Assembly: GCA_043803685.1 (NCBI GenBank)
Contig: JAZDJU010000075.1
Location: forward strand, 1-41,935
Length of the DNA stretch: 41,935 nucleotides
Direction of reading: 5' to 3'
DNA from: Candidatus Omnitrophota bacterium
GTDB taxonomy: Bacteria > Omnitrophota > Omnitrophia > Omnitrophales > Aquincolibacteriaceae
Shown here: positions 10,099 to 41,935 of the stretch, piece after piece
Numbering within the stretch: position 1 is the first letter of the stretch
How the letters are laid out: each line of letters starts with the position of its first letter
The notes under the pieces: model-generated
Seen by the model: the letters and a program-made list of their open reading frames with translations, nothing else
Told to the model about the DNA's origin: nothing
The model's database searches: none
Position numbers and translations under genes: made by a program

Positions 10099-10659
10099 CT
10101 AGGAAAGACGGGACATCGAAACCGTTGCGGCACATTTGATCACGCTGGATCCCTTGGCCGTCGCTTGAAGCGCGTATTTTTCGATGCGGAAGAGCAACTT
10201 CGAATTTTCGATGGCATAGAAGAAATTGATGATCTGGTCGATCTGCCCCTCGCATTCGAGAGTAATGCGGAAGACGTTACGATCCTTGCTCTCACCTCCC
10301 GCGGGCTTTGAATAGAGCAGATTCACGGAAGCCTGGCTGGCGATCTGCTGGACGCTCTTCAGCAGCATCAGCACCCCATCATCCGCGGACTTCGAAGGCA
10401 CCGAATAGGCTGCATAATGCTCAGCTTCTTTCATCATCCTTGCTTTTTGATCGAGAAGACGGATGCTTTTCTTGATGTTCGTCTCTGTATCATGGATCTT
10501 CTGGTCCAGGGATTGGAAGTTCCTGTAGATAGGACTAAAGACAAGCTGGTCGCCGGCCACCAATACCACGGCCGCAACCGAAAAATAGAGGATGATCTTC
10601 TCCCGTTGCGACAGGCGTTGAAACAAGCCGATCAGCTTCGCCATATCTATAAATTGCAT
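10099..10659 (-). CDS. GspM/PilO-like inner-membrane platform protein
   Basis: LSQREKIIL plus TM, coiled coil and a ferredoxin-like C-terminus (ITLECEGQIDQIINFFYAIEN); follows the PilMN-like gene. Confidence 0.75.
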   Translation of the reverse strand: MQFIDMAKLIGLFQRLSQREKIILYFSVAAVVLVAGDQLVFSPIYRNFQSLDQKIHDTETNIKKSIRLLDQKARMMKEAEHYAAYSVPSKSADDGVLMLLKSVQQIASQASVNLLYSKPAGGESKDRNVFRITLECEGQIDQIINFFYAIENSKLLFRIEKYALQATAKGSSVIKCAATVSMSRLS

Positions 10660-10680
10660 ATCCGTATTCCTCTTCCTGTG

Positions 10681-12192
10681 TTATTTGGGGACAGCGATGA
10701 TCTCAAAATCGGAGAGCTCCGTACCATCCTCCGTCCGACCCGTAATGTATTTTGTTTCTACTTTTTTGAAAAGCGGCGAATTCCCCATCTCATCGACCAA
10801 CGAGAAAATAGAAGGTTTCTCGTAGGCGGACCCCTTGAGATCGATTTTTTTTCCCGCTTCAAACCTGAGATCGGACAGATAAAGACTGTTCTCGATCAAC
10901 GAAGATATCTCCGCGAGAGATTCAAGCGCCATGCCCCGGGTTGCTAGATACGCCTTCACGGCCCGGACTTTGGTGTAGGTGCCTTCGAGCGCATCCGCTT
11001 CCTTTTTGATGGGCTCGTAACGCGCGGTGAGCTGTTGGAGGCGGACCGTTTTAGAGTAAATATGACTTGCGACCGAAAAACACACCAACCCGAGAAGCAC
11101 CATCGCCAGGATCCCGGAGCTTATGACCTGTTTCGACCGTTCGATCATGACACGGCTGAATTTACTTTCATCGGAGCTCAGATCCACCTTCAGATCATCC
11201 ACCAGAAGCCCCGGAGCCGCCGAGGACAATAAAGCCACGTTCATTTCGCGGGAATGTTCCTTTAACGCCGGAGCCACGGGCAGGACATCCCAGTCCGAAA
11301 CTTGCTTCACCGACACGTTAAAAGTCTCGCGAATGGAGACCTCGAGATCATCGAGTCCCACCGTCGCCCCTCCAAAAATAATACTGGCCGGCATTAGATC
11401 GATATTTTCACTCTGATAGGTATCGAAGGATTTCTTAAGCTCTTCGATATAGCGAACCGAATACCCTTCCCGGGCCGCTTCGAAATGCTTCGCACCGATG
11501 GAAATGCTCCGCACAAAGAGGACCGCGCCGCGAAATACGATCAGGAATTCCGAAGTGTTGGAATCGACCTGAATGATACAAACTGGAAATCGTTCATTCA
11601 TCAGGCTTGTATCTTTCCAGAAATACCGCCCAATGGCCTCCGGAGCAAAAACGATCTTTTCAAGACGAAGATTCATCTGGGAGGCAAGATCATAGTACTT
11701 CATCACGATGTTCCGGGGCACAATGATAAAGAGGACCTTCGTATAGACACTTTTAAAAACACCCAGATCGAGATAATCGAGGATGATCTCCCCCCGGGAA
11801 TAAGGCGTGTGCCGCGATGCCTGCAAACTAAGGATTTCACTGATCTCGTCGGGATCACGGGAGGGAATCTCGATGTTTCGAGTCACGACCACATTGGAAG
11901 AGATAAGACCGATCACCTGGGGACGCTTGAAATGCAGACCCTCAATGATCGTGCGGAAACGGTTCCCCAGTTCTACTTCCGGCATCCCCTGGATATTGAT
12001 GCTATGGAACTGCTCGACGCGCCTGCCTCCAAGGGCCTGCGAGGTGAAGGCCGTTACTTTCACTTCCTGCTCTTGCAGATTAAAGCAGATACACTCCTCG
12101 GCACCTGCGCTTGCATGGGACTTTTTTCGCCCCGAAGCCCCGCCCTTTTTAAAAAGTGATCCTATCGGTCCAAGACTCAATTTCACATTCAC
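10681..12192 (-). CDS. PilM-PilN fusion (GspL-like architecture)
   Basis: Actin-like PilM domain (VVTRNIEIP, IILDY, LFVRSISIG, IFGGA), TM ILAMVLLGLVCFSVA, coiled coil and PilN-like end (LYLSDLRF...LKGSA...FKKVET). Confidence 0.8.
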   Translation of the reverse strand: MNVKLSLGPIGSLFKKGGASGRKKSHASAGAEECICFNLQEQEVKVTAFTSQALGGRRVEQFHSINIQGMPEVELGNRFRTIIEGLHFKRPQVIGLISSNVVVTRNIEIPSRDPDEISEILSLQASRHTPYSRGEIILDYLDLGVFKSVYTKVLFIIVPRNIVMKYYDLASQMNLRLEKIVFAPEAIGRYFWKDTSLMNERFPVCIIQVDSNTSEFLIVFRGAVLFVRSISIGAKHFEAAREGYSVRYIEELKKSFDTYQSENIDLMPASIIFGGATVGLDDLEVSIRETFNVSVKQVSDWDVLPVAPALKEHSREMNVALLSSAAPGLLVDDLKVDLSSDESKFSRVMIERSKQVISSGILAMVLLGLVCFSVASHIYSKTVRLQQLTARYEPIKKEADALEGTYTKVRAVKAYLATRGMALESLAEISSLIENSLYLSDLRFEAGKKIDLKGSAYEKPSIFSLVDEMGNSPLFKKVETKYITGRTEDGTELSDFEIIAVPK

Positions 12193-12195
12193 TCC

Positions 12196-13290
12196 TCATG
12201 CTTCGCTTCGCGCACTTTTTTGACCCGCCTCCTGTAACTCTAGCGGGGTCATCCGCCGCGGAACTCCCATCGCCCAGGAATAGATCTTTCCTTCAATATC
12301 GGCAATAGCCTCTATTTCGAGCGTCTGCCGCTTTCTGGGCGCCGTCCCACGACTTAAGATCCGGAAATACCGGGAATTGATCCCGATCTGCTTCGTTTTA
12401 GCGATCTGGTTCAAAACACCGATATCATTATCGGTCAATTTCACGCGCTTCCCAAGCTCCGCGTTCCAATCTCCGATCTGCTTAAAAACACCATCATCCG
12501 AGGTGTTCTGTTCATGATCGATCCCCACACGGAAAACCATGATCTTATCGGCAAGAGCATCGTCCATCCCAAGCCATACCAGGACTTCCCGGGGCGCCGT
12601 ATTGATATTCACCACCCCTTCCCCATAGACCGTGATGAAGGGTCTCACCTTCTCAAAAAGCTCCGGCGTTATTCCCCGGACGAGAAGAAGTTCCTCGATC
12701 GATTCAAATTTGTAGTCTTTGCATTCGTAAGGCGTCTCAAAATCTTCATAAAAATCATCTTCGGCCCCGTATTCAGGATGGGCCAGGGAATTATCGGTAT
12801 CCCTCCAATCGGCCACACTATAGCCTATTTGATCGGCAAGTTCAGGCTCGACCCCGCCTATTTTTTGAAAAAACTCACTAAGAGACTTGGCGTCGGCGAC
12901 ATTGAGGTTGACCTTCCCTTCCTCGTCATCCACGCCGTAGTGGACTTTAAGTTCCCCGTCCTGGGTCTCCCGGTAAAAATGCGAGACGGTGTAGGTCGTC
13001 TCCCCCCCTACCGCGACATTCGAAAAATCCGTTTTCCCGCTTGTATAGGTATCGTTCTGAGAATGATAACCTTCATCTGCTTCTTTTTTTTGCCGCAGCC
13101 TGTAAAGCGTCTGAGAGATCCCCGTTTCCGAAACACCGCAAAGCCAATTCCTCACCTCAATGCGGTCGGCCAAAGAGATCTTCTGCCGGACATGCTGCCC
13201 TATCGAGACAGAAAGGATGGCAAGGATCGATATCATCCAAAGCGCCACGATGAGCAAACTACCGCGTGATGTTTGCGATGGGTATCGCAA
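12196..13290 (-). CDS. gspK: Type II secretion minor pseudopilin GspK
   Basis: RG/SLLIVALW prepilin-like N-terminus, DEEGKVNLN, ADWRD, FESIEELLLVRGI, VNINTAPREVL. Probable TTG start at 13290 after AAGGA (ORF track extends to 13431). Confidence 0.88.
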   Translation of the reverse strand: MRYPSQTSRGSLLIVALWMISILAILSVSIGQHVRQKISLADRIEVRNWLCGVSETGISQTLYRLRQKKEADEGYHSQNDTYTSGKTDFSNVAVGGETTYTVSHFYRETQDGELKVHYGVDDEEGKVNLNVADAKSLSEFFQKIGGVEPELADQIGYSVADWRDTDNSLAHPEYGAEDDFYEDFETPYECKDYKFESIEELLLVRGITPELFEKVRPFITVYGEGVVNINTAPREVLVWLGMDDALADKIMVFRVGIDHEQNTSDDGVFKQIGDWNAELGKRVKLTDNDIGVLNQIAKTKQIGINSRYFRILSRGTAPRKRQTLEIEAIADIEGKIYSWAMGVPRRMTPLELQEAGQKSARSEA

Positions 13291-13858
13291 GGGTCCTTTC
13301 GAATACATGCCGTCCGTCTTCTCCGGAACATTCAAATTCGACTTTGACCGCAGAAGGGATTTGCCCCGCATTCTCTGAAGCGTTCCACGTCTCCACCCAT
13401 TCGAATGTCTGCTTGTTTTTGATATAAACAAAATACTGGAATTTTACACGGGCGACATTTCCGAGCATCGGAACGGCTCGAATCTCTTCCTTTTGCTGGA
13501 TCTGGCTCAAATTTTCCTGCCTGCGCGCAAAGGTCCGGTGCCACTCATCCCAAAAGTAGCTGACCCTGCCGATGCCCTTGTTCAACAGCGCTCTCTTGTC
13601 CAGACCCACACGGGACGGAAAACTCAGCGATGCCTCTTGTCCGTCAAAGGGGATCCCATGAAAAAGCACCTGACTGGAAACTTCACGGTCAAGTTTCTCA
13701 AGGAAAACGCTGACATCCTCAGCCACCTCAGAGTGACTGACCCGCCGCATCATCCCGATGCCACTTCCGAACATGGCGTACAAGGCCATGCCGATCAGGG
13801 CCATAAGCGAAATGACCACCAACAATTCCACCAGCGTAAAACCGGCCTTCCGTTTCAT
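13259..13858 (-). CDS. gspJ: Minor pseudopilin, GspJ-like
   Basis: Class III signal MKRKAG/FTLVELL; C-terminal W...IPSAVKVEF typical of GspJ; directly before gspK. Confidence 0.75.
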   Translation of the reverse strand: MKRKAGFTLVELLVVISLMALIGMALYAMFGSGIGMMRRVSHSEVAEDVSVFLEKLDREVSSQVLFHGIPFDGQEASLSFPSRVGLDKRALLNKGIGRVSYFWDEWHRTFARRQENLSQIQQKEEIRAVPMLGNVARVKFQYFVYIKNKQTFEWVETWNASENAGQIPSAVKVEFECSGEDGRHVFERTLAIPIANITR

Positions 13859-13859
13859 G

Positions 13860-14270
13860 TCACGGCCCTTTGACTTTCATGACGGCACCATACCGGTCCA
13901 AGCGGTTGTCCTGCCCGGCCTCTTTCCACAGGATCTCCAGATGGATCCCATAGAGCTCGGTTAGCTTTTCCTGTTGCTGCTCCAGTGTCACTTTCCACTG
14001 ATAGGGCCGCGTCTTTCCTTCGATGGTCCCTTCGGGCGGGTTCACGTCCGGGAAATCTTCGATCAGAATGGCTTCCTTCACTTCCCAAAGTTTCTGAGCG
14101 GCCCAGTTCTGGACATCCAACCTGTTGGCATAACGCCCGTACACGGCACCGCTAAGGAGATTCGCTTGAGTGATAAAAACCGTCGCCAATCCCAACAGGG
14201 AGACGGTGATCAACACTTCAATGAGGGAAAAACCCCGCGAACTTTTTTTAGTCCCAGTTAACAATGTCAT
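13860..14270 (-). CDS. gspI: Minor pseudopilin, GspI-like
   Basis: MTLLTGTKKSSRG/FSLIEVL; EG...YQW...IHLEILW pattern. True start probably 14270, overlapping the gspG stop (ORF track 14591). Confidence 0.7.
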   Translation of the reverse strand: MTLLTGTKKSSRGFSLIEVLITVSLLGLATVFITQANLLSGAVYGRYANRLDVQNWAAQKLWEVKEAILIEDFPDVNPPEGTIEGKTRPYQWKVTLEQQQEKLTELYGIHLEILWKEAGQDNRLDRYGAVMKVKGP

Positions 14271-14682
14271 CGGGCGTCCCGGGCTGACCGTCCTTGCCTG
14301 CTGAAGACAGATCATAGTCTTGTGTCCGATGTCCTCCTGGACTTTCGTACTTATAATCCCTTCCCCAAGGGTCCACAGGCTTTTTCTCCAGATAGGGTCC
14401 ATTCCAATTCCGTGCCTCGCCCGACTTCGCCAGAAGAACATTAAGTCCCTCGCTCGTTGACGGGAACGATCCGTTATCCAGTTCATACAGTTTAAGAGCT
14501 GTCGCGATATTGGACCGGATATCCGCCTGAGCCGCCTGGACTCGCGCCTGTTCCGTTCTCCCCGAAAGCCGCGGCAACACCATGGCGACAAGCGCTCCGA
14601 TGATGATCACGACGAGCATCAATTCGATAAGCGTAAATCCCTCTTTAGACTTCAAGCTCCCCTGCTGATATAGGCTTTCCAT
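14248..14682 (-). CDS. gspG: Type II secretion major pseudopilin GspG
   Basis: EG/FTLIELMLVVIIIG, ALKLYELDNGSFP, WNGPYL, DPWG, SAGKDGQPGTPDDI; GGAGGAG RBS. Confidence 0.95.
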   Translation of the reverse strand: MESLYQQGSLKSKEGFTLIELMLVVIIIGALVAMVLPRLSGRTEQARVQAAQADIRSNIATALKLYELDNGSFPSTSEGLNVLLAKSGEARNWNGPYLEKKPVDPWGRDYKYESPGGHRTQDYDLSSAGKDGQPGTPDDIVNWD

Positions 14683-15449
14683 TTCTCCTCCAGTTCTTTA
14701 ATGGTACGCATTTGAGTGGGATAAGCAAAAGGCAATGCCGCCTCAATGCTTTTTCCATCCCTTAGTTGACGACAGAAAAAAATGAAATTATCCGAGCCGT
14801 ACGCTGTGACCAGAAAATCGACAAGAGACGCCGCTTGGATATAGAAGATATCGACCGCCGGTCTGGCGCTGACATTCCGGATATCGATGGTGGTCAAATT
14901 ATCCAGGGAAAATCCTCTTGCGTTCTCCAGATAAAATTTCATGGTCGAGCGCACGATCTTCCGCTTGGCCGGTTCCTGCCATTGGGCAACTCCCTCGTCA
15001 AGCCAGGTAGGCACTTCTCCCTGAAATCCCACATAATCACGAAAAATCAAGTGCGTGATCTCATGCGGGAGAAGCGCTTCCAAGAAACCCTCCTTCCATT
15101 CGTAGCTGACAATAGTCTTTTTTGTGTAGTCGGCATAACCCTCCGACCACCCAGCTCTTCCGGAGTGTTTCCGGAATTCCTCTTTGTTCTTGTAGATGTA
15201 AATGCGGACTCTTTTATCCCATTGCCAGAAACCCGAGCGCCGTTCGTATCCGAGGTCCTCGCCGATCTTCGTATAATACTGCTCTGCCTTCCGCAGCACC
15301 TCACCGGCAAAGGAGTCATCCCCGCCATGATAAACAATAAAATGATCGCCTCGGACCTCTTTCCAAGGCTCTCCATCCGGGGCAATAGCTGCCGTCAAGA
15401 TCCACGCGCAAAGCACGATCCAGATCCTGAAAATATTTCCTGGGTTCAT
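14652..15449 (-). CDS. Secreted zinc metallopeptidase, clan MA (gluzincin-like)
   Basis: Signal peptide; LLPHEITH (HExxH) followed by PTWLDEGVA; FYxQAxSLVDFL. Confidence 0.8.
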   Translation of the reverse strand: MNPGNIFRIWIVLCAWILTAAIAPDGEPWKEVRGDHFIVYHGGDDSFAGEVLRKAEQYYTKIGEDLGYERRSGFWQWDKRVRIYIYKNKEEFRKHSGRAGWSEGYADYTKKTIVSYEWKEGFLEALLPHEITHLIFRDYVGFQGEVPTWLDEGVAQWQEPAKRKIVRSTMKFYLENARGFSLDNLTTIDIRNVSARPAVDIFYIQAASLVDFLVTAYGSDNFIFFCRQLRDGKSIEAALPFAYPTQMRTIKELEEKWKAYISRGA

Positions 15450-15457
15450 CGGGCCTT

Positions 15458-16720
15458 TTATTTCACCATCATGTTGATCTCGAACATGGGCAGCAACATG
15501 GCGATCACGATAAATCCAACCACCAACCCCATCCCCAAGATCATGAGAGGTTCCAAAAGCGATGTCACAATGCGGGTCGCTTCATCGGCCTCCCGTTCGT
15601 AAAAATTCGCGATCTCACCCAGAGCTTCATCGAGCTTCCCCGACTCTTCACCCACACTGATGAGATTGGTCATGAAATTCGGAAAACACTTCGACGCCCT
15701 CAAACTTTTCCCGAAGGACCCGCCCTCTTTGATGTCTTTGAGACACTTGATGAGCTCGTTCTTGAGGACCGGATTGCTCACCACCGGGGTGGCGCTTTGG
15801 ATCCCGTCAATGATCGCGATCCCGCTCTTGATCAAAAGCTCCAGCGTGCGTGTGAACCTCGCGATCTGGACCTTGAGCATGAACGAACCGAAGATGGGAA
15901 GCCCGAGTACGAATCGTCCCATCGCGATGCTTCTGCGGATCTTTTCTTTCCGGAACAGCAGGATCGCCGACACAACCCCTAGCACCGCGATCCCCCAGAC
16001 CCAGGGAGAGCGCGCCCCTTCGCTTACCTGGATCAATATTCTCGTGGGAAGCGGGAGCTCTCCGCCCAATCGCGAAAAGACACCTAAAAGACGGGGCATC
16101 ACGAAAGTGAGCATAAAAATAATGGTTCCGGTGCCTGTGAGAGCCATGAGCGCGGGATAGATCATGGAAGAACGCACGCGGGAAATGATCTCTTCCTGTT
16201 TCTGACGGTATTCTGTCACACGTAAAAGGGATTGGTCCAGATTCCCGCTGAATTCGCCGGCCGAAACCAGGGCCAGATACAAGGGCGGAAAAAAAGCGGG
16301 ATATTTACTCATGGCTTGTGAGAACGGCGCTCCATTCTTGACGTCCTCGTAGAGCTGGTTCAGCATCTTCTTGAAAGCGGGATTCTCGGACTGTTCGTTC
16401 ACGATCCCGATCGCTTTGAGGATCGGTACTCCGGAACGGATAAGACTCGCCAATTGTCTCCCAAAAGCCGTGATCTCTTTACCTTTGACGCCTCCCCCAA
16501 GAACGATATGGAATCCGGATTTGCCTTTTCCCGAAGAGAAACCTCCGTGGATGAAGGGAGCACTTTCTTTTTTGTTCGCGGCGCTCGTTTGTTCGATCCG
16601 CATCGGAATGTAACCGAGCCGGGTCACCTTTTCAATGGCTTCGCCGTCGGTCGAGGCCTCGATAAGCCCTTCGATCGTTTGACCATCTTTTTCCTTAGCA
16701 CGATATTTAAAAGTCGCCAT
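15458..16720 (-). CDS. gspF: GspF/PilC inner-membrane platform protein
   Basis: FKYRA start, RQLASLIRSGVPI, AGEFSGNLD, IYP, VGEESGKLD, LLEPLMI...AMLLPMF. Confidence 0.95.
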   Translation of the reverse strand: MATFKYRAKEKDGQTIEGLIEASTDGEAIEKVTRLGYIPMRIEQTSAANKKESAPFIHGGFSSGKGKSGFHIVLGGGVKGKEITAFGRQLASLIRSGVPILKAIGIVNEQSENPAFKKMLNQLYEDVKNGAPFSQAMSKYPAFFPPLYLALVSAGEFSGNLDQSLLRVTEYRQKQEEIISRVRSSMIYPALMALTGTGTIIFMLTFVMPRLLGVFSRLGGELPLPTRILIQVSEGARSPWVWGIAVLGVVSAILLFRKEKIRRSIAMGRFVLGLPIFGSFMLKVQIARFTRTLELLIKSGIAIIDGIQSATPVVSNPVLKNELIKCLKDIKEGGSFGKSLRASKCFPNFMTNLISVGEESGKLDEALGEIANFYEREADEATRIVTSLLEPLMILGMGLVVGFIVIAMLLPMFEINMMVK

Positions 16721-16789
16721 TTTTATTTCTCACTCTAGATTGAAACGTGTTCAATGCGCTTCACTCGAGGCCTCGGACAGGCCCCCTGT

Positions 16790-18973: not shown

Positions 18974-19009
18974 TCTTTATTCCCCTAATACGTATATTCA
19001 GACGGATAG

Positions 19010-19046: not shown

Positions 19047-19157
19047 GTCACATCCGACTGTAGGAACGCCGCAACACAGACACTGGGAATACAACTAGGG
19101 GGGGGGGCCAGCAACTCCCTGCCATATCAAACTAGAAAACTCGAGGAAAGAACCATC

Positions 19158-21501
<2,344 letters not shown>

Positions 21502-21519
21502 GGGCCCTTCGCAATGAGT

Positions 21520-33200: not shown

Positions 33201-36200
33201 CCGAAAGTGCCATTCCTTGAATAGTGAAGTTCGACCGGCGTGAAAGTCCCGGTCGAAGTCCATTGGATCTTTGGCGTCGACCCCACGGCCCAGCTGATGC
33301 CGGCGTTCTCAGGCTGAGTCAACGCGAGCTTCCCCTTGATCCGGAACGCCTTGACCAGACCCGGATCATTTTTAACGTTCGTGTTCTCCCGGTGCCGGAT
33401 GCGGATCATAACGTCATTGCCGATCCTGTCGGGCACATCCCACGGGAACGTGTAGTCAGCCCCCTGCGGATTGATATTGGAAGGACCGCTATAGATCCTG
33501 TTTCCGGTGGGATAATCACCATCGGGATAGCTCAGCCCGCCGTTCGTGGAAAAATGGATTTCCACATTATCGACCGCCCCGAACTTCTGCCAGCGGATCG
33601 TGTAAACATCCCCGACTTCCATGGCAAGGGTTCCCGGGTCTACTTCATGACCGGTCGGCGCAATGAGTGTTACGGTCCCCTTGACCTCAAAAACAGAACT
33701 GATCCCCTCGACCGCGGTCTGCGTATTGGGCGTCACAGCCTTAACCTTGACCCGGCCCGTAAACCCGCTTGTCAGCGCTGTCGTCGCGGGATTCAATGGC
33801 CAATCATAAAAGTAATCGGCGCCATCCTTGCAGCCCGGCTCACAACCATCCGCAATATTGACCGGCGTCCCCGTGATCTTCACGTAGTGGTTGGCCGCCC
33901 CGTCATAGGAATACCAAACGTCTGCCGCCTGGAGATCGCCCTTCTTCGTGAACTTGATCCGCTGCGGAACGTTCACCCCCCACGACTCATTGCCCACGCT
34001 CGGATTCGTCACGGTCAACGCACCCAGGATCGCGAAATCACCCTCGGATTCGATCGCCGTCCCGGCCTCATTCAAGGGATCGAATTGCGTGATCCGGATC
34101 TGGTTCGTATTATTAAGATCGGCCAATGCTCTCGGAACCGGGTTCCAAACGTAGGTGCCTGTATTCTGGGCATTGTCCGTGATCAGGTTCCATGTCGGAC
34201 TCGGGTCTCCGGAATTATTCGTGTAATAGAGCGCAACCTTTGTGACGCCGGTCACCAGGTAATTGTTCCAAAGGATCGTGTATTCCTCTTCGGAATAGGC
34301 GGTATGCCCGTTTTCGGGATCCGTGATGTCGAACGGAGCTCCGATCTTGAAAAGCTGCGCGGCCGCAAGCGGCAATGTCTTCTGTTGCGTTCCGCCGACC
34401 GAATACACATCGGTTTCATTGTTCGCGTCCGTAATCTTGATCACGCCTTTGTTCGTCACCTTCCCGGGCATCGGACTCCACCGGTAGGTCATGACGCCCG
34501 TAGGACCGGTCTGAGCGACAGTCGTGAGCGGCGTATTGGTATCCCATTCATCGCCCGAACCGGCAATGCCATCAACGCCCAAGCCTTCGTTCAGATCATA
34601 ATAGATCTTCACATTCGCGATCGTTCCGTTGAATGACCATTCAATATCATTCGTCGTTGATTTCGCCATCCAGGTCATCGGGCTCACGGGCTTTGTGAGC
34701 GTAAGACCGCCGATGATCTTGAAATTTCCGGAATCAACCTTCACGTTCGGGTTCGCCGTGTCGATCACCCGGATCTTCACGAACCCGTTAACATCGGGAA
34801 CGTCATCCCATTCGGTCGATCCAGCGTTGTTGGAAACTGAAAGCCCCGCATGGATCGTTCCGGCAAAGGTGTTCGCGTTATTGAGGTCATACAACACATT
34901 CACGGTCGTGAGATACGTCCCGGTATAGGTGAACGCAATCGGATTATTGTTCGAGAAGGCGATGATCCGGAGATCCGTATTGATCGAGGGATCCAACGTG
35001 ATCTGGGGACGGATCGCGAACGTTGCCGATTCCATGCTCGCGTTCGTGTCATTCGGATATTCATCGAAAAAGATCTTGATCTTGACTATTTCGCTGAATT
35101 CATCCGCAACGCCATCAGCCCAAAGGAAGTTATTGACCCCGTTCGCGCAATCGAATTTGACCGGCTGTCCCGCCTGGACATGCCCCGTCTCGTACACCAC
35201 ATCGGTCCAACTGCCGCCCTGCACCAGATACTGGAACCGAACTTTAGGTAATGATCCGTCGGGCTTCGTCGAGCTTGTGGCCGAAAATGTGATCGTCCGC
35301 TGTTCCCCGACATACCAGACCGAAAGCCCCGATAGCAACGGAGAGGTAATACCCGTAATCTTCGGCCGGAGCCCGAAGGTCGCAGTCGAAATGTCCGAAA
35401 GCTCGGTCCCGGCCGGAGCCCCGACATTGCTGACCTTGACCCGGTAATCTTCCGAAACCTTGAGTGCGGTCGAAGTGGTCCAGACCGGGTTCAACGAGTT
35501 GGTCCCGTCGTTACCGGGAGGGAACGACGGATCGAGGGTCACAAGATCGGAAGAATCCCCCTTGGCCGTATGCTGAATAAGCAGGTTCCCGATCGTCCCA
35601 AGCTTGGTCCACGAGATCGGGATCTGGTCACCGATATAGAAGGTCTGAGGCGAATCGTCCGGTGTCTGGAGATCCAGTGTTCCTTTAATAATGTTGGAAT
35701 GGGTCGGATTCACGTAATTTGAATCACGATAAGTGTTGAGGTTGTTGTAGTCTGAAATACGGAAAATAACTTTGTTGGAGATCGTATCAGGAATGATCAT
35801 GGGTGAGGCCGAGGGCCCCCAGGTCCAGGTCCTTCCGATACCATCCGCGATCCCGTCCACGCCTCCCGCGGGCGTGATCTCGATCCAGGACGGCGGTCCC
35901 GACATCACATAGCTGTATTCCACTTTGAATTTGAGGAAGCTACCGAGAGGCTCCCAACGGATCTGTTTGAACCCGCCGACCACAAGGTCCGTCGCGTTCG
36001 TGGGAGTCACATTGTTGATCGAACCGCTGACCTGAAATCCCCCCGTGGAGATGCCGACGGAGATACCGCGCTGCTGTTGTGGATCATCCGCCTTGACCTT
36101 CATTTTTCCGCTGAATCCCGCTGTCAAATTGGCATCCACGGGGATCATCGGCCACTGCCAGACAATGTTCGTGTCATCCGGCTGCGCCGATATATCCACC

Positions 36201-39200
36201 AATCCGCTGATATCTTCCTCGTCGGAAAAATCGCCCAGCGCCGAATACATGACAATGACATTTTTGATCGCACCGGTCTTTTTGAAGATGACCTCGCGGT
36301 TGATATCCGCAAGTCCCCACCGCTCCGCGTCCGACTGGTCGCCTTTCGGGAACACCACCGTGATCGGGGCCTTGATCACGAACGCAGTCCCGGCCCCTAA
36401 GGTTTGAACATCCGCGTTATCAGGATCTGCCTGGGTGATCCTTAAACGGAGATCGGCTTGAAGATCTTCATAGGTTTTCGGAACACGCCAGATAGCGGCG
36501 CCGGTGTTGCCGACCGCGTTCAGGGGAAGACCGGCAGAATCGAGCGCGGGATTCCATGTTCTGGCACCAGAGTAATTGTTGGAATATTCCAGTTTCATTT
36601 TGGTGTTAGACGAAGGTCCCTTATCTTTCACCCAGGTAATTTCATAGTCGGTCCCCGCGGTAATGGTCTGCCCATTCGACGGAAGGAGATTGCTTACCAG
36701 GGCACCGCGTTTGAATTCCGTGCCTTCGCTGGAAACGTAGGTCATGCTACTGGTCAATTCGTTATTATTGATCAGAATGCTTGCCGTATTCAGCACCATA
36801 TCATCGTTCGTTCCCCCGGCCGGCCATGTATAATTGCAAGCGCCTCCTCCGCAATATGTCGCGGCCGCCACGTTGTCCGCGATCAGCACATAGTCATCCG
36901 GAAATGTCGCCGCTCCGGCAACGATACTGTAATAAATGTCAAAATTAACGATCGACCCGGTATACTGCCAGCTGATATCCATATCCGTTTCAGCGGTTCT
37001 ATTGACTCCGCCTTGAGGAACCTGGAAGGTGATCCCGCCGCGGATCGTGAATTTATCGCTCACAGCGTTCACCAACTCATATCCCGCCTCCGCGTCCTGA
37101 ACCTTGATCTTCACAAGCGATCCGATCGAGTTCGGCACTGTCCACGTATATCCCGTTGTCCCCACTCCCACCGCCACAGGGACGCCCCCGTTGATCGGCG
37201 TCGGATCCCAATTCACGCCATCCTGCGCGTAATAGATGTTCACTTCATCCACGCCCGTCCCTTGAGTCTGGCTCCACTTGATCAGATTATTGTAAGTCGC
37301 TTGCACCGTAAATTGTTGATCCAGAGTCGGAGCGTCCATTCGCAGGATCGGCAGGATCTTGAAGGTGTAAGGCGTCGTAAAAGTCGTCTCAGGATAATTC
37401 ACATCCGTGATGCGGATCTGCACGCCGTTCGTTTTCACGTCCGCGGGGATCCCGCTCGTCCAGTCGTACGTGTTCGCGCCATTCACATGCCCGCCGGAAT
37501 CCGCCACGACGTCACGCCAACCCGTTCCGTCATAAAACTCAATGTGCACGTTTGTCACTGTTCCCGTCGCGCTCCACACGATCTGACGGTTCGTATCCCC
37601 CGCATTCCACGTCACACCGCTTGCCGGACTCGTGATCTGCGTAATCTGCCCCACGATCTTGAACGTGCCGCCCGTCATCGCGGCCACTTCCGTCGGGGAA
37701 TCCTTCACGCGAACACGGAACTTCACCTGTCCGCTGATCTCGTCAGGCACCAGCCAATCATAGGTCCCCTGAACTCCTTCCGCGGTATTACTCGCCGTGG
37801 GAGGAACCGTATCCAAAACATCCGGAGCGCCAAAGCTTCCGCTCCCGCTCTTGTCAAAATCGAAAGTCACAAGCTGCCGATAACTGCCCGGATAAGTGCC
37901 CGTCGGCGTCCACTTCACATTGTAATGCTGACCCACGAACACGTGCGTCACCGTATCGTTTGGCCAATCCAGAGCGAGTGAACCGTAGATCTCGATGTTA
38001 TCGCTCGACTCTGCCTCCACCGTATCATTGCCTGCGTCCTGGACACGGACACGCACCTGATTGCCGATCTTATCCGGGATCGACCACTGATAGCAGGGCA
38101 CCGGAACGCAACCGTTCTGGCCGTTCGTCGCACTCACCGTTGCGATCAGATTCTGCGGATCGGGATAGGTCCCGCCGCTTTCCTCCCCGCCGTTCGTCGA
38201 ATAATGGAGTTTCACGTCCTGGATCGCACCGTAGGGCGTCCACTGGATCTTGTACACTGGGCCCCCGTACCTCAGCGCCACACCCACTCCCGTCGGCGCA
38301 CCCAACGTGAGAGAGCCTTTCACCTCAACGCGCCCGGGGTTCTGCGTGCCAATCACCGTCGCCTGCGATCCGGGATCCACGGCCTTCACCCGGATGCGCC
38401 CCGCATATCCTGCCGTCAGAGGCGTCGAACCGATGATGCTCCAGTCAAAATAATAATCACTCCCGTCCTTGCACCCCGGCTCGCAACCATCCGCGATATT
38501 GACTGCCACCGTGTTGATCTTGTACCCGGTCCCGGCATTCTCGGAGAAATCCCCGAGCGGAGAATAATAAACATCCACCGAGTGAATATCGCCCGTCTTC
38601 GTCCACTTGATCCGCTCCGTCGTGTTCGCATCCCACGAAACGTTATTCGTCGGATACGTCACCGTCAGCTTTGAATTGATCTTGATCTGGCTCCCCGTCC
38701 CGATTGCGATCGCTCCCACCTCATCAGCCGTAAAATTGTCGAGGTCTGTCGCAGGAGTCGTTTCATAGAACTGAACGATCCTCACCCTCTGATCCGTCGA
38801 AACAAGGTCCGCATAACCCCGGGGGATCGGGTTCCAGTCAAAAGCCGTCAGCGCGCCGCCCACACCGTTCACGTCCGTCACTCGGATCCATGTCGGGGGC
38901 GCGGCTTCAGAATTATTCGTATAATAAACATGCCATTTGTAAAGACCCGTCCCCGCCGTCTTGTTCCACGTCACCTGCGTGTTCGGATCTTCCGAGTAGA
39001 TCACCGTCCCGTTGACAGGCGACGTCACGCTTGCCGCCGCGATCACCTTGAACAGGGGACTCACGGACGCCGTCCTCAACCCGGTGTCCGGATCCTGGAC
39101 CTCCAACCGGATCCGGTAACGAGCGCCCACCAGCGTCACCGCAGGATCCACGCTCAGATCCCAATTCAAAGTGGAAGACCCGCTCGCACCGTTCCCCGTC

Positions 39201-41794
39201 TGGTCCTTCGAGCCGATCAACGTCCAGCTATCCGAAGCGTCATCAGGATCGTAATACACGTTCACCGTACGGTTCGATCCCCAAAAATTCCACGAGATCG
39301 TGTTCGTCGCAGAACTCGCCACGAGCTTCTGGTTCAACACAGGGGCCGTGAGCACCACATTCCCGGCGATCTTGAACTGAGGAGATTCCCCCTGCGATGC
39401 GTTAAAATCCATATCGATCACCTTGACCGTCACGGTATTCCCGATCACATCCGGAACATTGGTCCATGTCACCCCAGTCGCGCCGTTACCCGCAGGAACA
39501 TCCGTCGCGATCAATCCATCCCCGGGATAATAGCGGACTTCGACTTTACGGTTCGTGGTGCTCCCCGAATAGGTCCACTTGATCAGGTTCGGATAGGTCT
39601 GACCTACCAAAAGACTTGTGCTCGCGTCCGGCGTCGGCGTCACCACAACCTTCGGGCGAACTGTGAATTGGGCAGGAGCCCCAAGAAGGTCGGTATTAAT
39701 CGAGGTGTAATCATTATAAGAGATCTTGATACGGACCGTACTGTTGCGAAGGTCGGCCATCGGGGTCCACAAAAGGCTATGCCCGCCCTGTCCGCAAGCT
39801 GCCGCATCACCACCGGGCACCGTAAAATAATCCGCTCCATTCGTCGAGTACTCAACAATGCAGGTCGGAACAACATTACCGGACTTCGTACCGCTCTTCG
39901 AAACCCATTCGATCGTCTGACCGGTATCCGTATCGGTTGCGTACCAAAGAGTTGAAACCGTCGGATTGTCCAGGGAGGTAAAATTGGGACGGATCTTGAA
40001 TAGAGCGCTCAATGCCTCGAGCTGTGTGCCCGCAGGAGCGCTCAAATTGGTCATCCGGATCCTGCTTGTGTCGGAGATCTTGCGATTGGCGCCAATGATC
40101 CCTGCCACCCAGGCGTAATTGCTGACACCATTACTGCCTGAAAAATACGCGTTCTCGATCGTATAAACGTTCCCGCCCGAGTAATCCCCCGCCGTGAATG
40201 TCCCGGTCGTCGAGTATTCGATCTTGAGGTCCCCGATCGATCCCGTCTTGTCCCACTGGATCGAAGGCGTCGGCGTATTCCCAACCGTCCAGATATCCGT
40301 CACGATCGGTGACGGGATCGAAAGTTTACCGCGGATATAGCTGGCGACAGGAGAAACGCTGTTCGCGTTCGAGTTGTTATAATCTGAAACTCTGAAAAGA
40401 ACATTATTGGAAATGGTATCCAACACCGGATTCCAGGTCCACTTCTTCGCGCCGCCGCCTGCGTCATCACCATCCACACCACCCGCCGGGGTGATCTCAA
40501 CCCATGTCGGCCCCCCGGTCATCACATGGCTGTATTCAACTTTATATTTCAGAATAGCGCCCGTAGGCACCCACCCGATATCCGTCTGGTCTCCGACCCG
40601 AATGTTCGTCAGATCTCCGGAAGGCGTCACACTGTTAACGGAACCGCGGATCTGGAAGCCTCCGCCCGAGATCCCCTGGGCATTATTCGTTTTCTGAGGC
40701 GTTGGCGTCTCCGCTTTCACTTTGATCCTGGAGTTGAACCCGGCCGTTGAAAGAGGCGTGTTGGCCGGAATACTGTTCCAGGTCCAGGTGTATTCTGCAT
40801 TATCCGCGAGCGCCGACACATCGATCGGTCCCGCCGTATTGATCGGGGCGGCTTCATAGTTGGTCCCATCCGGCGCGTAATAGATATTCACGGTCTGGAG
40901 AGCGCCCTGCTTTGTAAATTTGATGTCATGAGCTTCCAGGAGTCCCCACGACTCGCTCCCGGAGCCTGTGGGCGCTGTCACATTGATCGCCGCACGGATA
41001 CAAAAAGTTTCAGTGCTGATCAAAGTCACGGCGCTGTTGTCAGGATTGACCTGTGTGATACGAAGCTTTACGTCCGCATTCAGATCATTCAAAGTTCCCG
41101 GCACGGTCGGCCAGATAAAACTTCCGTCGTTATCGGTTCCCGCGATAAGTTCATTCCATGTCGGAGGACCGCCCTGCGCGTTGTTCGTATACTCAACCTT
41201 CATCTGGGTCGTCGTGACCAACCCTTTCAGTTTCGTCCACTGGATCTCGGATGTCGTGGACCCGACCGGGATGAAAGGACCGTTAAAAACCGTAAGATTG
41301 CTGACGGACGCGCCGCGTTTGAATTCCGTACCTTCGGCGGCCACATAAAGCAGGCTGCTGGTCGCCGTGTTGTTATTGACCAGAATGCTCGCTGTATTCA
41401 GCACCGCGTCGGTATTGCTCGTTTCATCCGCCGGCCACGTATAAGAGCAGCTACCGCCCGAACAGGCGGTCGCGGCAGCGACGTTGTCGGCGATCTGCAC
41501 ATAGTCGTCTGGGAATGTTCCCGCCCCTGGCACAATGCTGTAATAAATATCAAAATTCACCATGGAACCTGTATAGGTCCATGCGATATCCATCGCCGTA
41601 TCCGCCGCCCTGTTCTCTCCGTTATCAGGTGCATCGAACGTGATGCCGCCGCGGATCGTAAATTTGGACGACATCGCATTCACAGCTTCGAATCCAAGCG
41701 CTGCGTCCTGCACCTTGATCTTCACAAGGTCGCTGATCGCGTTCGGGATCGTCCAGGTATAACCCGTCGTTCCAACACCTACCGCCACAGGCAC
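24266..41794 (-). CDS. Giant repetitive membrane-anchored surface protein (adhesin-like; >5,842 aa, N-terminus outside the window)
   Basis: Dozens of ~120-aa modules with pattern (I/V)TxPxGxxxWxxG...IxW...V.L.YS.......W..P...S...(K/R)IRI; short Cys-Cys loops; C-terminal coiled coils; TM WFIIFAILVFIGLLGVVFFFTW and a ~35 aa tail. The GTG at 41794 is not a true start. Confidence 0.9.
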   Translation of the reverse strand: MPVAVGVGTTGYTWTIPNAISDLVKIKVQDAALGFEAVNAMSSKFTIRGGITFDAPDNGENRAADTAMDIAWTYTGSMVNFDIYYSIVPGAGTFPDDYVQIADNVAAATACSGGSCSYTWPADETSNTDAVLNTASILVNNNTATSSLLYVAAEGTEFKRGASVSNLTVFNGPFIPVGSTTSEIQWTKLKGLVTTTQMKVEYTNNAQGGPPTWNELIAGTDNDGSFIWPTVPGTLNDLNADVKLRITQVNPDNSAVTLISTETFCIRAAINVTAPTGSGSESWGLLEAHDIKFTKQGALQTVNIYYAPDGTNYEAAPINTAGPIDVSALADNAEYTWTWNSIPANTPLSTAGFNSRIKVKAETPTPQKTNNAQGISGGGFQIRGSVNSVTPSGDLTNIRVGDQTDIGWVPTGAILKYKVEYSHVMTGGPTWVEITPAGGVDGDDAGGGAKKWTWNPVLDTISNNVLFRVSDYNNSNANSVSPVASYIRGKLSIPSPIVTDIWTVGNTPTPSIQWDKTGSIGDLKIEYSTTGTFTAGDYSGGNVYTIENAYFSGSNGVSNYAWVAGIIGANRKISDTSRIRMTNLSAPAGTQLEALSALFKIRPNFTSLDNPTVSTLWYATDTDTGQTIEWVSKSGTKSGNVVPTCIVEYSTNGADYFTVPGGDAAACGQGGHSLLWTPMADLRNSTVRIKISYNDYTSINTDLLGAPAQFTVRPKVVVTPTPDASTSLLVGQTYPNLIKWTYSGSTTNRKVEVRYYPGDGLIATDVPAGNGATGVTWTNVPDVIGNTVTVKVIDMDFNASQGESPQFKIAGNVVLTAPVLNQKLVASSATNTISWNFWGSNRTVNVYYDPDDASDSWTLIGSKDQTGNGASGSSTLNWDLSVDPAVTLVGARYRIRLEVQDPDTGLRTASVSPLFKVIAAASVTSPVNGTVIYSEDPNTQVTWNKTAGTGLYKWHVYYTNNSEAAPPTWIRVTDVNGVGGALTAFDWNPIPRGYADLVSTDQRVRIVQFYETTPATDLDNFTADEVGAIAIGTGSQIKINSKLTVTYPTNNVSWDANTTERIKWTKTGDIHSVDVYYSPLGDFSENAGTGYKINTVAVNIADGCEPGCKDGSDYYFDWSIIGSTPLTAGYAGRIRVKAVDPGSQATVIGTQNPGRVEVKGSLTLGAPTGVGVALRYGGPVYKIQWTPYGAIQDVKLHYSTNGGEESGGTYPDPQNLIATVSATNGQNGCVPVPCYQWSIPDKIGNQVRVRVQDAGNDTVEAESSDNIEIYGSLALDWPNDTVTHVFVGQHYNVKWTPTGTYPGSYRQLVTFDFDKSGSGSFGAPDVLDTVPPTASNTAEGVQGTYDWLVPDEISGQVKFRVRVKDSPTEVAAMTGGTFKIVGQITQITSPASGVTWNAGDTNRQIVWSATGTVTNVHIEFYDGTGWRDVVADSGGHVNGANTYDWTSGIPADVKTNGVQIRITDVNYPETTFTTPYTFKILPILRMDAPTLDQQFTVQATYNNLIKWSQTQGTGVDEVNIYYAQDGVNWDPTPINGGVPVAVGVGTTGYTWTVPNSIGSLVKIKVQDAEAGYELVNAVSDKFTIRGGITFQVPQGGVNRTAETDMDISWQYTGSIVNFDIYYSIVAGAATFPDDYVLIADNVAAATYCGGGACNYTWPAGGTNDDMVLNTASILINNNELTSSMTYVSSEGTEFKRGALVSNLLPSNGQTITAGTDYEITWVKDKGPSSNTKMKLEYSNNYSGARTWNPALDSAGLPLNAVGNTGAAIWRVPKTYEDLQADLRLRITQADPDNADVQTLGAGTAFVIKAPITVVFPKGDQSDAERWGLADINREVIFKKTGAIKNVIVMYSALGDFSDEEDISGLVDISAQPDDTNIVWQWPMIPVDANLTAGFSGKMKVKADDPQQQRGISVGISTGGFQVSGSINNVTPTNATDLVVGGFKQIRWEPLGSFLKFKVEYSYVMSGPPSWIEITPAGGVDGIADGIGRTWTWGPSASPMIIPDTISNKVIFRISDYNNLNTYRDSNYVNPTHSNIIKGTLDLQTPDDSPQTFYIGDQIPISWTKLGTIGNLLIQHTAKGDSSDLVTLDPSFPPGNDGTNSLNPVWTTSTALKVSEDYRVKVSNVGAPAGTELSDISTATFGLRPKITGITSPLLSGLSVWYVGEQRTITFSATSSTKPDGSLPKVRFQYLVQGGSWTDVVYETGHVQAGQPVKFDCANGVNNFLWADGVADEFSEIVKIKIFFDEYPNDTNASMESATFAIRPQITLDPSINTDLRIIAFSNNNPIAFTYTGTYLTTVNVLYDLNNANTFAGTIHAGLSVSNNAGSTEWDDVPDVNGFVKIRVIDTANPNVKVDSGNFKIIGGLTLTKPVSPMTWMAKSTTNDIEWSFNGTIANVKIYYDLNEGLGVDGIAGSGDEWDTNTPLTTVAQTGPTGVMTYRWSPMPGKVTNKGVIKITDANNETDVYSVGGTQQKTLPLAAAQLFKIGAPFDITDPENGHTAYSEEEYTILWNNYLVTGVTKVALYYTNNSGDPSPTWNLITDNAQNTGTYVWNPVPRALADLNNTNQIRITQFDPLNEAGTAIESEGDFAILGALTVTNPSVGNESWGVNVPQRIKFTKKGDLQAADVWYSYDGAANHYVKITGTPVNIADGCEPGCKDGADYFYDWPLNPATTALTSGFTGRVKVKAVTPNTQTAVEGISSVFEVKGTVTLIAPTGHEVDPGTLAMEVGDVYTIRWQKFGAVDNVEIHFSTNGGLSYPDGDYPTGNRIYSGPSNINPQGADYTFPWDVPDRIGNDVMIRIRHRENTNVKNDPGLVKAFRIKGKLALTQPENAGISWAVGSTPKIQWTSTGTFTPVELHYSRNGTFGAGDVFVVKPDTIVTNCTPQVGQITCNGEANFEIEDQISAAAKVRIRGTGTQADVQYVSTNPFKIVGALDITAPESGQIWYVGETNKNITWDASGTITNVNIGYKTSFAGACNYTNIVSGDAGHASGSNTYVWPNIADERTETAYICIQDVAFPEIVNVSAAPFKIRPQITVTTPVSGTRVKVGSDNPDLIKFSVTGTKTQLVDIVYSENNGTDGYPHTIASDVVVTEGIAGVDWNDVADTITPTAKIKVVDKASTGEVVFGLSPDTFKIVGSVVLTAPPEAPPAEKIMLKKGQNYLIQWDKTGSFADVTIWYSIGGGAFNNQIKDQTPAVNKQFLWSNVPNTTSSNIVVRISDYTDPETVSFSAPIAIQSTLNITSPDNGEVWAVGESEDVVWTTDGTTLRVKLEYSTNGGGETGNWQDVIGAENILNGGVKAWTIPNSISNTVKVRVIDIADTDNWNESAETFKIRPNFRILSPNGNADPGLTDKLTVCPDPCTNKTPISWSVAGTVTTVKLQYSVDGGAYTDIPGAVSLDSSGYIDTPLVKSWDWAVPDSISDEVRVRVVYESDTTNYESSDYDFTIQGQLAFNPALPEAGDGTWYVGETKTITWAKTGTVPLIKLQYSKTSDTTGFIDIDTNLGGTTYPWVIPSDLSGTNPIDPSVWIRAVNMNADKPTIMAVSGPIDLRGQFMITSPIVTDQWEVDSSHAIQWTPYGTMGTIKLEYSTDDFVTPMPVTGPGGESAANLAAGVHEVPQSFTWKIPTNISNNVKIRISTNTVGQADVTASPVFKIVGGYKILTPNGAANQYFEVDGSTPITWERHGAIANAKLEYSTNGFSNEDEVFPIITVPGSDGSYSWDPVPNAIGKNVKIRISDPLYNGTTVFTSSDVSDAVFEIRGAIDIDFPVGGEIFLITDDQTVQWTKHGSMPAVKVEYDSDPADAFDFTDPATGDPNYIKNASGTSASSVAGTSFSWRIPDRKSLNKTRIKITNLSDPTNVFTVTPFFTVRGGFSWIDPVTTDQVFEVGSTGVLRWSTFGTIPNIDLQYSTNNDFSYNPMLVNNNPVTPATAVLNENTFNWIVPDTISKNVFLKIKDSTDPDAVTRTVKVRVAGKIYIDQPDSTQRWGVGDTKNITWHMDGSISNLKIEYSINDGATWIDPPISASIVGSVGTKSWLIPAFVTPTAKIRISDLITDSGATPAVTDAFKIVGSFSFTAPANGDTWYVTEGGIANPTRNIVWATQGLVPSVNLRYSKTGAAPWTLINTGGPIADGGSGGSYAWTVPDAISSSVKILIEDSADNETNLTSPAFSIAGDFQITAPAGAADKWGVNSIKNITWLKNGTDWSNDLVKKNMVYLFYSTDGTTGPWVPILNPLRGDYYVSNTGLFAWTIPDNLSPNSRIQIQNVDGPSVMRNSPANFKIMARFDVTAPDGGETVMAGPTTTITWNKWGTGVNNVRIDLALNGDDAEPTFDKLIAANTANDGSHPWAVSVDHVSPTAKIRISDLNDIDTANTSATSFIIRATFTMDPNIGSVPVEIGETYNIFWTKQGNIPNVKLTYSPDNFFSDTRMIEPTADGIVPNTDSCTSNPTMGCYSWVVPDIEDNKDVGVKLKVADPNDLDAEAISNVFSIIPKFRITFPNGNANSALTDKLKVGTPYTITWTSSSAQLKTPQVMLAYTTTGGAPYDKAITTTENDGSYNWVTANGGVPDDISNQVKIRVMDASDSVATDSSDFNLQIVSDFVVSAPNGGATYEVGDPFTIAWTNKGRVETVGLSYGTAGVDFASPVVIDNAYDNGSDFGNTYSWTIPNAIGTNVRVRVRSTTDEGFDISDTSFRVRGKLVSTLPSSTDKLPIGQSFTLQWTSYGTMPNVKLHYDTANGTGGFPNEISASTPNCTPSAPALTCVGSFVWNNIPDTPAAQARVRITDARSEESDVLGISDAFQIVGNLTVVTPNGGQDWRVNESRNIVWTWGGSIPVVKLYYTKEVGDPETVNWTEIDSGTVKDYSGDGLQQNGANNTIQRQYAWSVPDDISPTVRVKIADATNVGVYDVSNATFKIRGDFVVTSPNGNANIDLAERWVTSIFATGEGQNITWTANGTIPNVKLEYSSDDFGSDIHLIDASAPNCTPSGPGVPCTGSYYWEIPDAVLKDQGGKYVGPNLMKVRISDINDAEVTDVSDNSFKIDYYQVKWVIRDLGTYNLMSDLTVSEVKSTDPNLGIWQESGLAAAQPDPDGYTRIQPTPAGVWAATWSKTGYGDMLQLASLSKNNPLQDPPLALDPTYLLLMETTAVHIYISESRYTYDPVSDRLDVVVWLSRDGSLMTGTVNARMYIYKGVDLVTGGPIDLAKIGTDTGMFGATLTAVSDPNGAYKLQAGLTYVVKAQTQIASQVPNNVWYQTPNSFEITTPSKLQEVLDEVHRVLDKPMSEVAEELNQTLANQTQVIQETLAEQTETIQEEMANQTNLIQTAVNDFTESVQESLVALEEGAKASQEAGEQLKATAERFSWKTSSTPNPALAGDTVTIAAQGLPGLFPVLSIYNFANKVVVASGALVETKSNPGNYSFTFKADPGTFQAGKAYTFIVSEDTTGGLVAGSGFVESTSLTTIAGLVASAPGAEEAAKKALDIVKGIEAAMAKGGADVDGVKDQIYKLKTVIEDLPGKFVDLMKKDGTMGDVKNSVNAISTQLTTLAGDQGYDISQLMSQAISSAPSIKDLRKKSDAIRDGVDIVQKTIEAKLGGSEEPLVLVSYTSGSVVIRVIVANPSEKKTQEVPVKVYLPQETKPDDVMDKGDLDFGYDEKKAVYFVYKDKVLLAPKETRVFEVELKDIWFIPDETLNGLRTQTEKIMKRIEGTPYFDQAKLIADTIFGRLDRVATSQADESVNKELHIGLYRANLIVIDNVKADIAKLEKMLVAVGAPPAPELLAESKLNLKTPSRATTWFIIFAILVFIGLLGVVFFFTWQSQVKETHEFPEDKDGTKPSGSDGDSGQKPPNAK

Positions 41795-41801
41795 CCCCCC
41801 C

Positions 41802-41935
41802 GTTGATCGGCGTTGGATCCCAATTGACGCCGTCCTGGGCGTAATAAATGTTCACCTCATCAACACCCGTCCCCTGCGTCTGCGTCCACTTGATCAGGTT
41901 ATTGTAAGTCGTCCCGACCGAGAACTGCTGGTCCA
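41802..41935 (-). CDS. Upstream, frameshifted continuation of the giant protein gene
   Basis: Reads DQQFSVGTTYNNLIKWTQTQGTGVDEVNIYYAQDGVNWDPTPIN, nearly identical to the in-frame internal copy at ~37190-37323; separated from the main ORF by a G8 tract. Confidence 0.85.

Follow-up and report, generated by a model that had tools for sequence, protein, structure and literature searches.

A candidate ion-uncoupled rotary ATPase encoded between a giant fibre gene and type II secretion-like genes in Omnitrophota

Genomes of the phylum Omnitrophota are known to carry a 'symbiotic', non-respiratory F-type ATPase beside type IV filament (type IVa pilus) genes, within 10 kb on 57 of 66 contigs, and attachment or motility on hosts has been proposed for these loci (Seymour et al. 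2023, PMC10066038). Giant genes next to type II secretion system (T2SS)-like genes have also been described from the phylum, with predation or adhesion as the proposed role (West-Roberts et al., 10.1101/2023.11.21.568195; 10.64898/2026.06.07.730766). Two further groups of F-type enzymes serve for comparison. N-ATPases have the gene order atpDCQRBEFAG, and their defining features include a fusion of subunit b to the C-terminal part of delta (b-deltaC; 10.64898/2026.10.01.756066). The Mycoplasma type 2 (gliding) and type 3 (MIB-MIP) clusters comprise seven genes, without subunits a, b and c and with three unrelated proteins, one of which has 12 transmembrane (TM) helices (PMC3369863, 10.64898/2025.12.04.692339). 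Here we analyse a locus that fills an entire 41,935-base contig (JAZDJU010000075.1, C75; all of it is called the window below) of a 2.89-Mb genome of a Candidatus Omnitrophota bacterium, in which six atp genes stand between the gene of a giant surface protein and a T2SS-like cluster. We propose that this cassette probably encodes an ATP-driven, ion-uncoupled rotary motor working for a T2SS-like machine that displays a fibre.

The genes form one minus-strand train, in the order giant, atpC, E, F, A, G, D, gspE, gspF, a peptidase gene, gspG, I, J, K, pilMN and pilO. As a first-pass annotation of this DNA had claimed, the giant stop overlaps the atpC start (TAATG at 24268-24264, minus strand) and the atp genes are tightly spaced by ORF limits (giant/atpC -1, atpC/atpE -14, atpE/atpF 18 and atpA/atpG 18 bp), the atpF/atpA and atpG/atpD junctions being tight as well.

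24266..41935, minus strand: giant surface fibre, C-terminal 5,842 or more residues, stop-free to the contig end
24371..25021, minus strand: anchor module fused to the giant (docking strand, beta-sandwich, three-helix bundle and TM helix, the last at 24371-24436)
24006..24266, minus strand: atpC, epsilon (PF02823); 86 residues, N-terminal beta-sandwich domain only, C-terminal inhibitory helices absent
23792..24019, minus strand: atpE, subunit c (PF00137); RNP loop retained, Na+ ligands absent
23039..23773, minus strand: atpF, b fused to the C-terminal half of delta (OSCP 100-167/172); N-ATPase-type stator stalk
21520..23094, minus strand: atpA, alpha; ATG at 23067, Walker A and arginine finger retained
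20653..21501, minus strand: atpG, gamma (PF00231)
19254..20684, minus strand: atpD, beta; ATG at 20666, P-loop, catalytic Glu-Arg and Walker B retained

Intact motifs and Pfam matches bear out the claim that the ATP-hydrolysing parts, the rotor (gamma, epsilon, c) and a stator stalk (b-delta) are all present. The window cassette has the alpha3beta3-gamma-epsilon set of a canonical F1Fo enzyme with its catalytic motifs intact, and these motifs are conserved across the family. Epsilon is likewise short in the housekeeping enzyme of the same genome. The atpF product matches TIGR03321 over its full length but weakly (34 bits, cut-off 225), and the N-terminal delta-binding helix is absent from the alpha consensus of the cassette family. 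The N-terminus of the window alpha carries three to four short imperfect K-I-T-D-P/S repeats (22980-23067), which are absent from that consensus.

The claimed lack of subunit a in the locus also held. The only PF00119 match of the genome belongs to the housekeeping operon on another contig (C37), a canonical and complete ATP synthase separate from the cassette. For relatives of the cassette, the best gamma matches in 251 genomes were taken, which gave 100 loci in 94 genomes; those with names are mostly Omnitrophota. BLAST found a subunit a homologue in none of these 100 loci, nor in 80 further, partly overlapping loci found with c, and a five-sequence a profile (canonical plus N-type) run against all ORFs of the fetched cassette loci gave nothing better than E 0.04. 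No recurrent polytopic orphan protein was conserved in the cassette loci, and there is no atpB upstream of the giant on C106, the contig that likely holds its N-terminal part, or in 14 stitched relatives. Carboxylate-bearing c does occur in homologues, never with atpB in the locus. Of the 94 genomes 80 were searched whole, and PF00119 was absent from 30 of them, the other 50 having an a elsewhere. The PF00119-less genomes include one that is a single contig and others of 6-9 contigs; at completeness values of 92-99% single absences are no proof, yet whole families are without PF00119. Four PF00119-less genomes were examined, and each has the cassette as its sole F-type alpha/beta pair alongside a V/A-type pair, V-type enzymes being judged by their A/B pairs because PF01496 is weak in these genomes (1/5 above cut-off). 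The cassette therefore need not borrow an a.

The same annotation held that c has no carboxylate, which is true of the window locus and not of the family. Alignment places Ala58 (codon 23848-23846) at the position of the ion-binding Glu, the window c reading F-G-A-A where relatives read F-A-E-A, while only 18 of 88 related loci lack the residue. Twelve loci from several families, the window included, form a Glu-less clade (support 0.98; here and below FastTree SH, Shimodaira-Hasegawa, values on unrooted trees) with G, S, A or T at this position, which on the alpha+beta tree has changed at least five times overall from an ancestral Glu. Within the window clade atpE has a non-synonymous rate (dN) of 0.04-0.08 against a synonymous rate (dS) of 1.1-1.3, resembling alpha and beta and indicating strong purifying selection. 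The ring is therefore needed, though in this clade not for ion binding. A selected c-ring with neither subunit a nor an ion-binding acid runs counter to the rule that carrying ions is what the ring is for. It would mean that a rotary ATP synthase has become a purely mechanical motor, for which the type 2 F1 motor of Mycoplasma is a precedent (10.64898/2025.12.04.692339).

An enzyme that is still an ion pump or auxiliary synthase, with its a from elsewhere or an unrecognised stator and with the Glu-less clade as a degenerate offshoot, would account for the Glu kept in 70 of the 88 loci, for the N-ATPase ancestry argued below and for the a encoded elsewhere in 50 of 80 genomes. However, the 30 genomes without an F-type a still keep the Glu, and none of the 50 a-bearing genomes has a second a copy. 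The Na+ ligands of c are absent family-wide, a conserved mid-membrane Arg or Lys is missing from b, the anchor helix and GspF, and the Glu-less c is under strong selection. We consider such a pump improbable.

Another feature of c concerns the size of the ring. The inner-helix glycine motif, which sets c-ring size (PMC4564677), is substituted by larger residues (GP-S-x-V-I-A), and from sequence this may mean a wider ring. Together with the link between b-deltaC enzymes and large rings (10.64898/2026.10.01.756066), this would suit a ring that serves as a membrane pore, with F1 threading or unfolding a polypeptide or polymer in the manner of FliI/SctN-type export ATPases. We give this little credence, since gamma and epsilon, both retained, would block the ring, the giant protein and its anchor carry Sec-type signal peptides, and c is still fully hydrophobic.

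As to origin, trees of 21 cassettes, three N-ATPases, one Mycoplasma type 3 enzyme and seven canonical enzymes, a small reference set with long branches and without Mycoplasma type 2 sequences, placed the cassettes in one clade (SH 1.0) that joins the N-ATPases and the Mycoplasma enzyme. AtpA and AtpD stand apart from the seven canonical enzymes, that of C37 included (SH 1.0, also without Mycoplasma), and do not nest in housekeeping synthases. The first-pass verdict that this is not an ATP synthase is thus upheld as far as the cassette is not the housekeeping synthase. The cassette shares with N-ATPases the b-delta C-terminal fusion, the absence of a separate delta, the C..E-F-A-G order, a G-P motif in c helix 1 and the alpha/beta branch (SH 1.0). 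It differs in having no atpQ, atpR or atpB between atpC and atpE, in the last position of atpD, and in the loss of the Na+-binding set on c (helix-1 Glu, E-S/T-T, Tyr). The window atpC overlaps atpE exactly where N-ATPase operons carry atpQ-R-B, and in 60 of 79 cases atpC and atpE are no more than about 100 bp apart. Scores stay below the N-ATPase family cut-offs of the hidden Markov models (HMMs; beta 502 of 752 and alpha 467 of 750 bits). The best explanation of these sequence features is an F-type rotary ATPase derived from an N-ATPase by loss of atpQ-R-B. The available text of the N-ATPase study (10.64898/2026.10.01.756066) makes no mention of Omnitrophota.

The comparison with Mycoplasma drawn in the first-pass annotation stands in one respect, the re-use of F1 beside large surface proteins, which type 2 and type 3 likewise show. 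It fails for composition, which matches an N-ATPase minus atpQ-R-B: the cassette keeps b and c and has no 12-TM protein. The single Mycoplasma type 3 sequence is sister to the cassettes with SH 0.97 for alpha, 0.53 for beta and 0.94 for the joined alignment, on a branch of length 1.3, and the cassette scores below the Mycoplasma-type HMM cut-offs.

The annotation had suggested that such co-location may be partly known in Omnitrophota, rightly so, the ATPase/pilus pairing having been published by Seymour et al. (2023). The window has a non-respiratory alpha/beta pair within 10 kb of type IV filament genes in an Omnitrophota genome, the criterion of that study, and we infer that the loci are the same. 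The available text of PMC10066038 is without the missing a, the retained b and c, the Glu loss and the tie to giant and anchor, and it describes a type-4a pilus whereas the window filament genes score T2SS-like (GspG, GspK, no PilT). The published Omnitrophota giants are, in the accessible parts of those reports, multi-TM proteins of 30,000 residues or more with SecA and enzyme domains, unlike the single-TM repeat fibre of the window, and an F-ATPase link is not mentioned for them there (10.1101/2023.11.21.568195; 10.64898/2026.06.07.730766). In a literature search whose coverage did not extend to subscription journals and preprint supplements, we found nothing on the a-less composition, the Glu loss or the link to giant and anchor. 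The locus type is known, and its architecture is undescribed.

Conservation of the neighbourhood argues against a chance arrangement. Among the 73 loci with at least 6 kb of upstream DNA, gspE, b and c are present in all 73, a large upstream ORF in 68 and the anchor module in 69. The synteny with giant and T2SS-like genes that had been claimed therefore does extend across Omnitrophota. It has undergone several rearrangements phylum-wide in which the same gene set is retained, and purifying selection acts on all eight genes tested. A decaying ATP synthase operon would explain the loss of both a and Glu; in the face of this synteny and selection, decay or chance neighbourhood is already largely refuted and has in our view a very small probability. 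The same layout, with two alpha genes, is found on 65-76 kb contigs labelled Kiritimatiellia and Lentisphaerae (labels only). Tandem alpha genes occur in four cassettes (L036, L155, L172 and L190), two of them on contigs with these labels.

The giant protein ends in an anchor that recurs through the phylum. Its last 250 residues are modelled by AlphaFold as a beta-sandwich, a three-helix bundle and a TM helix (mean predicted local distance difference test score, pLDDT, 87). Many relatives encode this module by itself, with a signal peptide of its own; the large protein upstream, of whatever repeat type, then mostly ends in a helix and a short terminal strand, often P-V-V-x-x-W-F-E. Where the two are fused, the strand continues directly into the module, where it is the first strand of the modelled sandwich. 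Fusion and fission have alternated at least nine times on the tree, and we suggest that the terminal strand is a docking signal that clips variable giant fibres onto the membrane anchor. At least 128 of the 251 phylum genomes have the module. Among the matches listed, 114 of 144 anchor loci have a gamma match no more than 8 kb away. Thirteen of the other 30 were inspected: five have a full cassette, five are giant-anchor pairs followed by unrelated genes and three lie near a contig edge. Foldseek with the whole module gave no PDB match at E<=0.001 and, in a wide search, generic three-helix bundles only; an atlas search returned unnamed Omnitrophota clusters. The paralogous cassette on C130 of this genome comes with an anchor made up of two modules plus a cytoplasmic GGDEF domain.

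In the window the giant consists of 47 tandem beta repeats of about 110 residues (residues 2-5037), with Kre9/KNH Ig-like matches, followed by helical and coiled segments, the docking strand, the anchor module and one TM helix. Its ORF is cut at the contig end, and the repeat goes on in another frame past a run of eight G near 41795. An ORF of 2,538 residues on C106, with a signal peptide and running off its contig end, matches the window repeat family and the N-termini of complete orthologues, which have 7,545-8,455 residues. It is likely the N-terminal part of the giant (C106 and C75 do not overlap), and on these matches the full protein would probably measure about 8,400 residues. Counting C106, it has at least 65 beta repeats (47 plus 18) and a single C-terminal TM helix. 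Its N-terminal domains (model pLDDT 69) resemble discoidin and H-type lectins and phage or pyocin fibre tips (Z 7-8, root mean square deviation 2.1-2.6 over 73-78 residues), and an atlas search gave weak phage matches. The likeness is moderate in score and coherent as a set, and the model fits an adhesive tip.

How might these parts work together? Intact catalysis and the loss of the ion path are read from the sequence, and rotation, load and biological role are what we propose on that basis. F1 would hydrolyse ATP and turn the c-ring against b, itself held on the secretion platform, with the ring as gear or grip rather than turbine. The motor's output would serve to deploy, reel or twist the fibre through the secretin while the cell attaches to a host or prey cell, with cyclic di-GMP (c-di-GMP) as the controlling signal, the repeat fibre with its lectin-like tip being held in the inner membrane by the one-helix anchor module. 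That the motor exports, rotates or retracts the giant, as the first-pass annotation had suggested, is a reading drawn from gene linkage. The ring's partner could be the anchor helix, the pseudopilus or the platform. A narrower version, which we rate as rather doubtful, makes the ring a direct mechanical clutch, whose ATP-driven rotation would be transmitted by way of the anchor helix to an adhesive fibre as long as a cell that runs through the secretin. Were it true, prokaryotes would have a fourth kind of rotary surface motor, built from an ATP synthase that works without ions and able to spin or reel exchangeable giant fibres, each docked through a beta-strand at its C-terminus. The system also speaks to a long-standing question, the relationship between F-type ATPases and protein-export machines, and gives a concrete machine for handling giant surface proteins in a widespread uncultured phylum of ultra-small, host-dependent bacteria. 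Its six small atp genes are open to expression and study without culturing the organism.

Several observations weigh against an ion-uncoupled motor for the fibre. The main one is that the Glu of c is ancestral and is kept in the 70 loci above, in 80 of 102 c sequences and in 11 of 11 further ones, including divergent c paralogues; a purely mechanical ring leaves its retention without an a unexplained. Machine and ATPase can also be separated, a third locus of the same genome (C105) having giant, anchor and gspE without atp genes. Giant-anchor pairs exist apart from the machine, the giant lies some 35 kb from the cassette in one family, and the anchor was not found in the single-contig genome G143. 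The sole wide gap of the train, 280 bp between atpD and gspE, may mean that the atp and gsp genes are transcribed separately. At the residue level nothing was found to tie c to the anchor: in paired alignments of 77-88 pairs, covariation of c with anchor, b, GspF, gamma and epsilon gave nothing above controls. All of the evidence is genomic. A predicted complex of four c copies with the anchor TM segment scored 0.00 in both runs, which speaks neither for nor against the motor, a partial ring being beyond the calibration of the tool.

The ATPase-free copies, together with the absence of PilT from the locus and the presence of PilT genes on other contigs, would also suit an F1 that is merely tethered by c and b and acts as a chaperone, an unfoldase or a second assembly or retraction ATPase without useful ring rotation. 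But gamma, epsilon and the RNP loop of c, the parts through which the rotor is coupled to the ring, show strong conservation and a tether would not need them, so that we see only a slim chance for this explanation and return to the rotary motor as the preferred one.

The machine for which that motor would work is encoded in the window's minus-strand train and in a second minus-strand block at 1854..7140.

16790..18973, minus strand: GspE/PilB-type assembly ATPase with MshEN and C-terminal PilZ domains
15458..16720, minus strand: GspF platform protein (Pfam)
14652..15449, minus strand: exported peptidase MA-like protein with HExxH, present in 55 of 100 loci
12196..14682, minus strand: pseudopilin block (Pfam)
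14248-14682, minus strand: GspG, above the TIGR01710 cut-off
13860-14270, minus strand: GspI (Pfam)
13259-13858, minus strand: GspJ (Pfam)
12196-13431, minus strand: GspK (Pfam)
10681-12192, minus strand: PilM-PilN fusion (Pfam), in a block (10099..12192) with PilO/GspM
10099-10659, minus strand: PilO/GspM (Pfam)
1854..7140, minus strand: outer-membrane half, with MerR-like, ExeA-like AAA and GspB/C-like proteins, secretin, a coiled-coil TPR protein and a 226-residue exported protein

Pfam matches thus agree with the claim that gsp and pil genes follow atpD on the same strand with exeA, gspC and secretin genes nearby. The T2SS gene set (GspD, E, F, G, I, J, K and alignment proteins) is present, GspG alone passing a curated cut-off; no GspH or prepilin peptidase gene was seen in the locus. 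The likeness to T2SS and type IV filament systems covers GspE, F, G, I, J, K, secretin, ExeA-like, GspB/C-like and PilM-N-O-type alignment proteins. The differences are the embedded rotary ATPase, a presumed client that is a membrane-tethered fibre of 4,500-8,500 residues or more, and the MshEN, PilZ and GGDEF links. A type IVa pilus would have a PilA-type major pilin and PilT, whereas here the major subunit is GspG-type and PilT matches lie on other contigs, from which PilT may act in trans. GGDEF genes or fusions occur in many loci and, with MshEN and PilZ on GspE, suggest c-di-GMP control. In three stitched relatives the secretin block stands directly upstream of the giant. GspF Arg210 was considered as a stand-in for the subunit-a arginine and rejected: it lies at a helix end, is often Lys and is also found in GspF paralogues without an ATPase.

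Promoter and terminator scans of the region were near chance level. The atpD-gspE gap holds the top-scoring promoter-like site, the total number of sites being no higher than in shuffles. In many relatives (L008-L042) a stand-alone gene of about 150 residues, similar to part of GspE, probably its MshEN region, fills this slot. On the plus strand a PAS histidine kinase and a TPR gene (7481-9999) divide the secretion cluster into two halves.

The genome's second cassette, on C130 (13615-14959 and 15194-17131), is a paralogue of the window cassette with two c genes, both with Glu, so that Glu-keeping and Glu-less versions coexist in one genome. These two genes flank atpF, the product of the second being three residues shorter in helix 1. 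In one lineage (L085-L099, e.g. L088) each locus encodes two or three divergent forms of c, most of them with Glu, which suggests hetero-rings. Five giant-anchor pairs distant from ATPase and T2SS genes (L235-L238 and L240) are possibly alternative fibres for one machine. Near the cut end of the window giant, the run of eight G (41790-41800) lies about 140 bases before the contig end, and an internal repeat copy 4,612 bases downstream keeps the frame; the shift is probably a sequence error and possibly a slippage site. Other giants (C105 1-1989, L096, L098) have long, short-period, coiled-coil-like repeats ahead of the docking strand. At least eight stop-free frames of more than 5,000 codons (up to 10,126) occur in the genome (C59, C57, C123, C67, C98, C114 and C72), most of them unrelated to the giant fibre.

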